64,000 bases of DNA from Escherichia coli O127:H6 str. E2348/69 (GTDB taxonomy: Bacteria; Pseudomonadota; Gammaproteobacteria; Enterobacterales; Enterobacteriaceae), in the NCBI RefSeq assembly GCF_000026545.1, contig NC_011601.1; one strand, written 5' to 3'. Made by a program: the position numbers and the translations under genes. This document shows, one piece after another, positions 25,664-26,052 of this stretch. The notes beneath the pieces are model-generated. The model was not told the DNA's origin. It worked only from the letters and a program-made list of their open reading frames with translations, and searched no databases. Position 1 is the stretch's first letter, and each line of letters starts with the position of its first letter.

Positions 25664-25685
25664 GATTGTGATTCGATTCACATTT
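25664..25685 (+). promoter_or_regulatory. CRP binding site of the tna promoter
   Basis: TGTGATTCGATTCACA is a perfect match to the CRP core TGTGA-N6-TCACA, about 80 bp upstream of tnaC. Confidence 0.6.
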
Positions 25686-25757
25686 AAACAATTTCAGAAT
25701 AGACAAATTCCTTGAGTATTATACTGTAGCCTCGTGTCTTTCGAGGATAAGTGCATT

Positions 25758-25832
25758 ATGAATATCTTACATATATGTGTGACCTCAAAATGGTTTAATA
25801 TTGACAACAAGATTGTCGATCACCGCCCTTGA
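25758..25832 (+). CDS. tnaC: tna operon leader peptide TnaC
   Basis: Manual translation MNILHICVTSKWFNIDNKIVDHRP (24 aa) with the conserved Trp12 and the Pro24-stop. Confidence 0.9.
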   Translation: MNILHICVTSKWFNIDNKIVDHRP

Positions 25833-26052
25833 TTTGCCCTTCTGTAGCCATCACCAGAGCCAAACCGATTAGATTCAATGTGATCTATTTGTTTGCTATA
25901 TCTTAATTTTGCCTTTTACAAAGGCCATCTCTCGTTTATTTACTTGTTTTAGTAAATGATGGTGCTTGCATATATATCTGGCGAATTAATGGATACTGCA
26001 AATGTAATATTCACAGGGATCACTGTAATTAAAATAAATGAAGGATTATGTA
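25833..26052 (+). promoter_or_regulatory. tnaC-tnaA spacer (Rho-dependent attenuation region)
   Basis: About 220-nt untranslated spacer between leader peptide and tnaA, the position of the known Rho-dependent terminator. Confidence 0.5.

Follow-up and report, generated by a model that had tools for sequence, protein, structure and literature searches.

The closest described system for the region analysed here is the tnaCAB operon of Escherichia coli K-12, and tna is among the best-studied bacterial attenuators. Initiation of transcription at tna depends on CRP-cAMP (PMC3902921, PMC6443796), the role of the CRP core as the catabolite-control site of tna being taken from the K-12 literature (PMC5748587, PMC3902921), and the K-12 transcript starts 24 nt upstream of tnaC (PMC6443796). 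When tryptophan is low, the ribosome is freed at the tnaC stop codon and transcription is terminated by Rho; when tryptophan is high, the TnaC-tRNAPro-ribosome complex resists RF2, stalls and blocks Rho, so that tnaA and tnaB are transcribed (PMC3902921, PMC6443796). Residues W12, D16, I19 and P24 of TnaC have been reported to be required for stalling and antitermination (PMC3902921). In K-12, TnaB is described as the main importer under inducing conditions and as belonging to a positive feedback loop by which the attenuator is supplied with its inducer (PMC6443796). Repression of the tna operon by the small RNA Spot42, through a 15-nt tract, was worked out partly with material from E2348/69 (PMC5748587). 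E2348/69 (O127:H6), the enteropathogenic (EPEC) strain from which the present sequence derives, is a reference pathogen, and its tna leader and indole phenotype are already known.

The window, by which we mean the whole stretch of 64,000 nucleotides that was analysed, carries yidC, mnmE, tnaC, tnaA, tnaB, mdtL and yidZ in this local order. By every sequence criterion tested, its tna leader region belongs to the tnaCAB leader family. We put at roughly 0.93 the probability that the region is a canonical tnaCAB leader, in an allele common to close E. coli relatives, which works as in K-12. Features of the leader and of tnaA are given below.

25667..25682, no strand assigned: CRP-cAMP site with the perfect palindromic core TGTGA-TTCGAT-TCACA (pattern scan)
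25693..25725, plus strand: tna promoter, -35/-10 interval (promoter consensus scan)
25734, plus strand: inferred transcription start (alignment transfer from K-12)
25758..25832, plus strand: tnaC, 24-codon leader (ribosome-arrest) peptide (translation, TIGR02616, WP_001364348.1)
25833..26052, plus strand: tnaC-tnaA spacer of 220 nt, expected place of RNA polymerase pausing and of Rho termination at low tryptophan (K-12 mechanism, PMC3902921)
25833..25880, plus strand: C-rich stretch directly after the tnaC stop, putative rut (identity to K-12)
25857..25872, plus strand: Spot42 small-RNA pairing site (predicted pairing)
26053..27468, plus strand: tnaA, tryptophanase, intact, 471 aa (WP_001295247.1, TIGR02617)

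The CRP core TGTGATTCGATTCACA is located at 25667-25682, upstream of the promoter. It is the one perfect match to TGTGA-N6-TCACA in the 64 kb, where shuffled sequence would lead one to expect 0.08. It is invariant across the nine diverse E. coli leaders that were aligned. A preliminary description of this DNA had listed a perfect CRP core in an interval starting at 25664; the core is indeed perfect, but its first base is 25667. The promoter scan returned TTCAGA-18-TATTAT at 25693-25722 and an overlapping TATACT at 25720-25725, both of which are candidate hexamers. Seven substitutions relative to K-12 are found in the -35/-10 interval (25708, 25709, 25711, 25712, 25718, 25720 and 25724), and all seven bases are common to the relatives H22, GPEC1031 and KKo009, the interval of UID2309 departing from the window solely at the neighbouring position 25710. 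Because the -10 region is unlike that of K-12 at three positions, the strength of the E2348/69 tna promoter may differ from that of K-12. The start transferred by alignment, 25734, is located 24 nt upstream of tnaC and would give a leader of 319 nt ahead of tnaA. In another strain, 06-3462, the bases just upstream of the CRP core (aligned to window positions 25654-25666) bear no relation to those of other E. coli, pointing to an insertion right next to the tna promoter of that strain or to a different junction.

Translation of tnaC gives MNILHICVTSKWFNIDNKIVDHRP with TGA as the stop. This is exactly the K-12 peptide, for which tryptophan-dependent stalling and antitermination have been demonstrated (PMC3902921), and it scores 44.3 bits against the NCBIfam equivalog TIGR02616 (tnaC_leader), whose cut-off is 23.55. 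Trp12 (25791-25793), Asp16 (25803-25805) and Pro24 (25827-25829) are present at the K-12 spacing, along with Ile19 (25812-25814), and the proline codon is directly followed by the UGA stop (25830-25832), which bears out the 24-codon tnaC with Trp12 and a Pro24-stop end that had been read from the letters. Two differences from K-12, at 25796 and 25811, are synonymous. Among the other strains compared, 537-20 has TAA instead of TGA as its tnaC stop (the change aligns to window position 25831), so that RF1 besides RF2 could act at the stalling site, and the basal or the induced level of its attenuator might be changed.

The untranslated spacer between the leader peptide and the tryptophanase gene (25833-26052) was put at about 220 nt in the preliminary description and is exactly 220 nt, equal to the K-12 length. 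It differs from K-12 at seven positions (25918, 25925, 25991, 25993, 25996, 25997 and 26001). Its first part, 25833-25880, has a C content of 29% compared with 13% elsewhere in the spacer, and no variable site is present there in nine strains. Zero differences from K-12 are found over the 106 nt from 25812 to 25917, which span the last seven codons of tnaC (Ile19 to Pro24 and the stop) and the C-rich Rho-loading zone. At the level of sequence identity, a putative Rho entry site (rut/boxA) adjoins the tnaC stop. We take 25833-25880 to be the Rho entry region of K-12, which is covered by the ribosome stalled at the stop codon; Konan and Yanofsky (2000) are said to have assigned rut/boxA around the tnaC stop codon. 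The 15-nt tract of Spot42, TAATCGGATTTGGCT, was recovered from the published mut4 mutagenesis primer and is predicted to pair with GAGCCAAACCGATTAG at 25857-25872 (-18.6 kcal/mol). A search of 25400-28950 against Rfam at E ≤ 1 returned no match; Rfam has no family for the tna leader, so this result is uninformative and gives no independent confirmation by RNA family.

Across 25664-26052, 17 substitutions and no indels separate the window from K-12 in 389 nt (95.6% identity). The earlier statement that the leader is fully conserved holds for its functional elements but not at the nucleotide level, where these 17 positions are unlike K-12. Seven of them are located in the -35/-10 interval (25708-25724) and seven in the distal spacer (25918-26001), the remainder being one in the loop of the 5'UTR hairpin (25741) and the two synonymous changes in tnaC. 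All 17 fall on sites that are variable among E. coli strains in the nine-leader alignment. Variable sites number 10 in the -35/-10 zone of this alignment and 19 in its distal spacer; the CRP core, the 48 nt that follow the tnaC stop, and the ribosome-binding site and start of tnaA have none. The leader of H22 is identical to the window over the aligned 554 nt, and the allele is also carried by the close relatives GPEC1031 and KKo009; at 99% identity or more, it is found in 372 of 5404 E. coli records. Comparison of these sequences indicates that the window leader is an ordinary allele of the canonical tna leader, with its functional elements conserved.

An altered function of the leader was considered as well and rejected, because the 17 differences, most of which the sampled close relatives share, affect polymorphic positions and spare the mapped elements. 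The K-12 operon shares with the window, in identical form, its CRP core, TnaC peptide and UGA stop, the 106 nt that take in the end of tnaC and the Rho zone, the length of the spacer, the ribosome-binding site of tnaA and the TnaA protein. What differs, besides the 17 substitutions, is tnaB: the K-12 gene is intact and reads A7 and then G, not an A8 run, where the lesion described below is located.

As judged from the sequence, the cis-elements for CRP activation and for TnaC/tryptophan antitermination are all present, and at every place to which a function has been mapped they match K-12 exactly. By analogy, we infer that each leader element behaves in E2348/69 as it does in K-12. CRP-cAMP at 25667-25682 would switch the promoter on when glucose is absent, the transcript would begin about 24 nt 5' of tnaC, and a ribosome would translate the 24 codons of tnaC. 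With abundant free L-tryptophan, the nascent TnaC (through Trp12, Asp16, Ile19 and Pro24) and tryptophan together would block RF2 release at the UGA. The stalled ribosome would then mask the Rho entry site directly downstream of the tnaC stop, and RNA polymerase paused in the 220-nt spacer would restart, leading to transcription of tnaA and tnaB. At low tryptophan, the ribosome would depart and Rho would end transcription within the spacer. Pairing of Spot42 at 25857-25872 would provide a second layer of catabolite control.

The TnaA protein does not differ from that of K-12, the 31 nucleotide differences in the gene all being silent, and it scores 1010 bits against TIGR02617 (cut-off 825.8). 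Since tnaA is intact, the strain makes indole. In LB, E2348/69 gives a red Kovacs reaction; its tryptophanase protein and its tnaC, tnaA and tnaB transcripts have been detected as well (PMC5748587). Indole accumulates to ~150 µM (PMC9635540), and killing of C. elegans and toxin production by E2348/69 need tnaA and added tryptophan, indole being identified as a killing factor (PMC3553163). Persisting indole production, which had been predicted from the leader, was therefore already published for this strain (PMC5748587, PMC9635540, PMC3553163), and the contrary outcome, an indole-negative strain, does not apply to E2348/69, which is Kovacs-positive (PMC5748587). As a side observation, the tnaA qRT-PCR primers of PMC5748587 face apart in the window (26288-26310 and 26768-26788, the 'forward' primer being downstream of the 'reverse' one), probably reflecting a labelling or printing slip in that paper.

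The leader is followed by a tnaB gene whose features are as follows.

27560..28806, plus strand: tnaB, low-affinity tryptophan permease, frameshifted pseudogene (PGAP, alignment)
27576..27583, plus strand: tnaB lesion, comprising an A7 run (27576-27582) and the heptamer A_AAA_AAC in the zero frame (27577-27583) (alignment, sequence)
27560..27613, plus strand: 17-codon ORF left by the frameshift, MTDQSEKNTLHFGVLWL and then UAG at 27611-27613 (translation)
27604..28806, plus strand: 400-codon ORF from the native Met16 of TnaB, possible restart product (ORF list)

The damage to tnaB that the preliminary description had mentioned is real and consists in the loss of one A from an A8 run, on which PGAP, the alignment and three assemblies agree. 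At this site H22 reads GAAAAAAAAC, with an A8 run, against the A7 of the window. Instead of an uninterrupted ORF over the 415 positions of the TnaB model NF007235, the window has a stop at codon 18, and the longest remaining ORF covers positions 16-415 of this model. When one A is added, a 415-aa ORF with 4 amino-acid differences from K-12 is restored, and for this reason the frameshift is taken as the sole damage in tnaB. The repaired gene has 52 synonymous and 4 non-synonymous codon changes relative to K-12. The tna locus of H22 is very similar to that of the window, with an identical leader, 6 nt differences in tnaA and 10 in the repaired tnaB, but H22 has the A8 run and an intact 415-aa TnaB where E2348/69 has A7.

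Homopolymer runs are places where long-read errors are common, and the identical change in two unrelated draft-derived chromosomes is in keeping with a sequencing or assembly error in a gene that is really intact. However, three separate E2348/69 assemblies (NZ_CP059840.2, NZ_LT827011.1 and NZ_LT903847.1) were compared with the window and are 100% identical to it across the site. PGAP calls tnaB 'frameshifted' in two of them, these being both of the assemblies whose annotation was read. Over 25500-28900 the window is 100% identical to all three, and the next-best genomes are 99.5% identical and one base longer. Because the three assemblies agree, such an error is highly improbable in E2348/69, and it was rejected as the cause of the frameshift. 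Since window positions 1-50000 are base-for-base identical to NZ_LT827011.1 4044443-4094442, the annotation of that assembly can be read directly in window coordinates. A literature search for a tnaB frameshift in connection with indole returned nothing relevant.

The exact 81-nt allele at the tnaB lesion occurs in 5 of 5390 records, three of which are the E2348/69 assemblies. The A7 frameshift was also seen in GPEC1031 (chicken, USA) and UID2309220013 (human blood, Thailand), the two draft-derived chromosomes referred to above, whose tnaB genes (L004 and L005; 2216-3462 in each) have 28-31 nt differences from that of the window. In these two it reflects either repeated, independent slippage at the A8 run or reading errors in a homopolymer.

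The change from A8 to A7 means that standard decoding yields no full-length TnaB, and the default reading is that the TnaB permease is non-functional or severely impaired. The suggestion of a possibly impaired import via TnaB agrees with this confirmed frameshift. Entry of tryptophan is still possible, because mtr and aroP are annotated as intact in E2348/69. Given the part of TnaB in the K-12 inducer loop, the intact leader is no guarantee of a wild-type induction threshold, and by analogy a lack of TnaB may shift this threshold when external tryptophan is low.

By its title, a 2011 paper of Bhatt et al. reportedly attributes a phenotype in enteropathogenic E. coli to TnaB, and a later review describes TnaB as essential for worm killing by EPEC. 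Because these two sources give TnaB a phenotype in EPEC, tnaB may not be null. Models of EPEC indole signalling and LEE regulation draw TnaB as the importer, and all three complete assemblies carry a frameshifted tnaB. The frameshifted gene, set against a literature that treats TnaB as a working EPEC importer, is a modest loose end, and tnaB experiments in E2348/69 should allow for the A7 allele.

It is possible, if on the whole doubtful, that tnaB is leaky, with ribosomes terminating at the UAG (27611-27613) and restarting at AUG 27604 to give a 400-aa permease without residues 1-15 that keeps some activity. The geometry suits termination-reinitiation, as this AUG ends 4 nt before the premature UAG (a spacing given as 8 nt from the first base of the AUG to the last base of the UAG) and GGGG is present at 27596-27599, 4 nt upstream of the AUG. 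The 400-aa ORF covers positions 16-415 of 415 in NF007235 and positions 4-381 of 381 in TIGR00837, so that it keeps nearly all of the core model of aromatic amino acid transporters. Judged by hydropathy, however, the restart product would lack the cytoplasmic N-terminus with its charges (KKH) as well as five or six hydrophobic residues at the beginning of TM1. That tnaB is undamaged apart from the frameshift is consistent with a gene still in use, but a recent frameshift would account for the absence of further decay without any selection. Messenger RNA 3' of the lesion (amplicon 27801-27894) has been detected in E2348/69 (PMC5748587), in keeping with a restart. Such a product would also agree with the phenotype given to TnaB in the 2011 title and in the review.

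A second route to TnaB would be recoding at the A run itself, where low-level full-length protein could arise by -1 slippage on A_AAA_AAC, giving a K8N product, or by the insertion of an extra A when RNA polymerase transcribes the A7 run; we regard this as improbable. The heptamer at 27577-27583 has the X_XXY_YYZ form in the zero frame with a productive -1 frame, and a -1 shift at this place is predicted from the sequence to restore the native frame exactly. In an IS cluster without an established stimulator, frameshifting on this same A_AAA_AAC has been proven (PMC4066793). However, heptamers without stimulators reach only 2-10 times a background of 0.055% (PMC4066793). When a stimulatory structure was sought in the 78 nt after the heptamer, no fold better than that of shuffled sequence was found (z = -0.13), which argues against programmed frameshifting. 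The relatives have a single intact frame in place of two conserved frames. Because the A7 arrangement is itself unconserved, at 5 of 5390 records, the tnaB heptamer is not considered a programmed site. Low-level compensatory frameshifting at homopolymer indels has been documented, but transcriptional slippage is documented there for runs of 9 and not of 7 (PMC5009743). The insA-insB' -1 site of IS1 is alike in having A_AAA_AAC in the zero frame and a -1 shift into a productive frame. The tnaB heptamer differs from it in having arisen from a rare deletion, in being unconserved and in having no stimulatory structure found downstream.

Taken over both routes, we think it rather unlikely that the tnaB 'pseudogene' of E2348/69 still makes a working permease, with restart at Met16 the likeliest way and a -1 slip less likely. 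If it did, a working tnaB would reconcile the frameshift annotation with the published role of TnaB in EPEC tryptophanase activity and worm killing, and the A8 tract of this allele would then be a mutational switch for the uptake of tryptophan, one that recurs and may be reversible. These alternatives concern tnaB and leave the reading of the leader untouched.

Some further observations were made elsewhere in the window. Within 7623-10329, the galactonate dehydratase gene dgoD is interrupted by ISEc13, with annotated fragments on both sides, and utilisation of D-galactonate is, from this arrangement, probably lost in E2348/69. A glucosamine-6-phosphate deaminase-like gene, yieK (35386-36108), is an annotated pseudogene with an internal stop. 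The window also contains dnaA at 19650-21053 and, at about 62253-62630, the mnmG-mioC interval, which is the location of oriC in E. coli.
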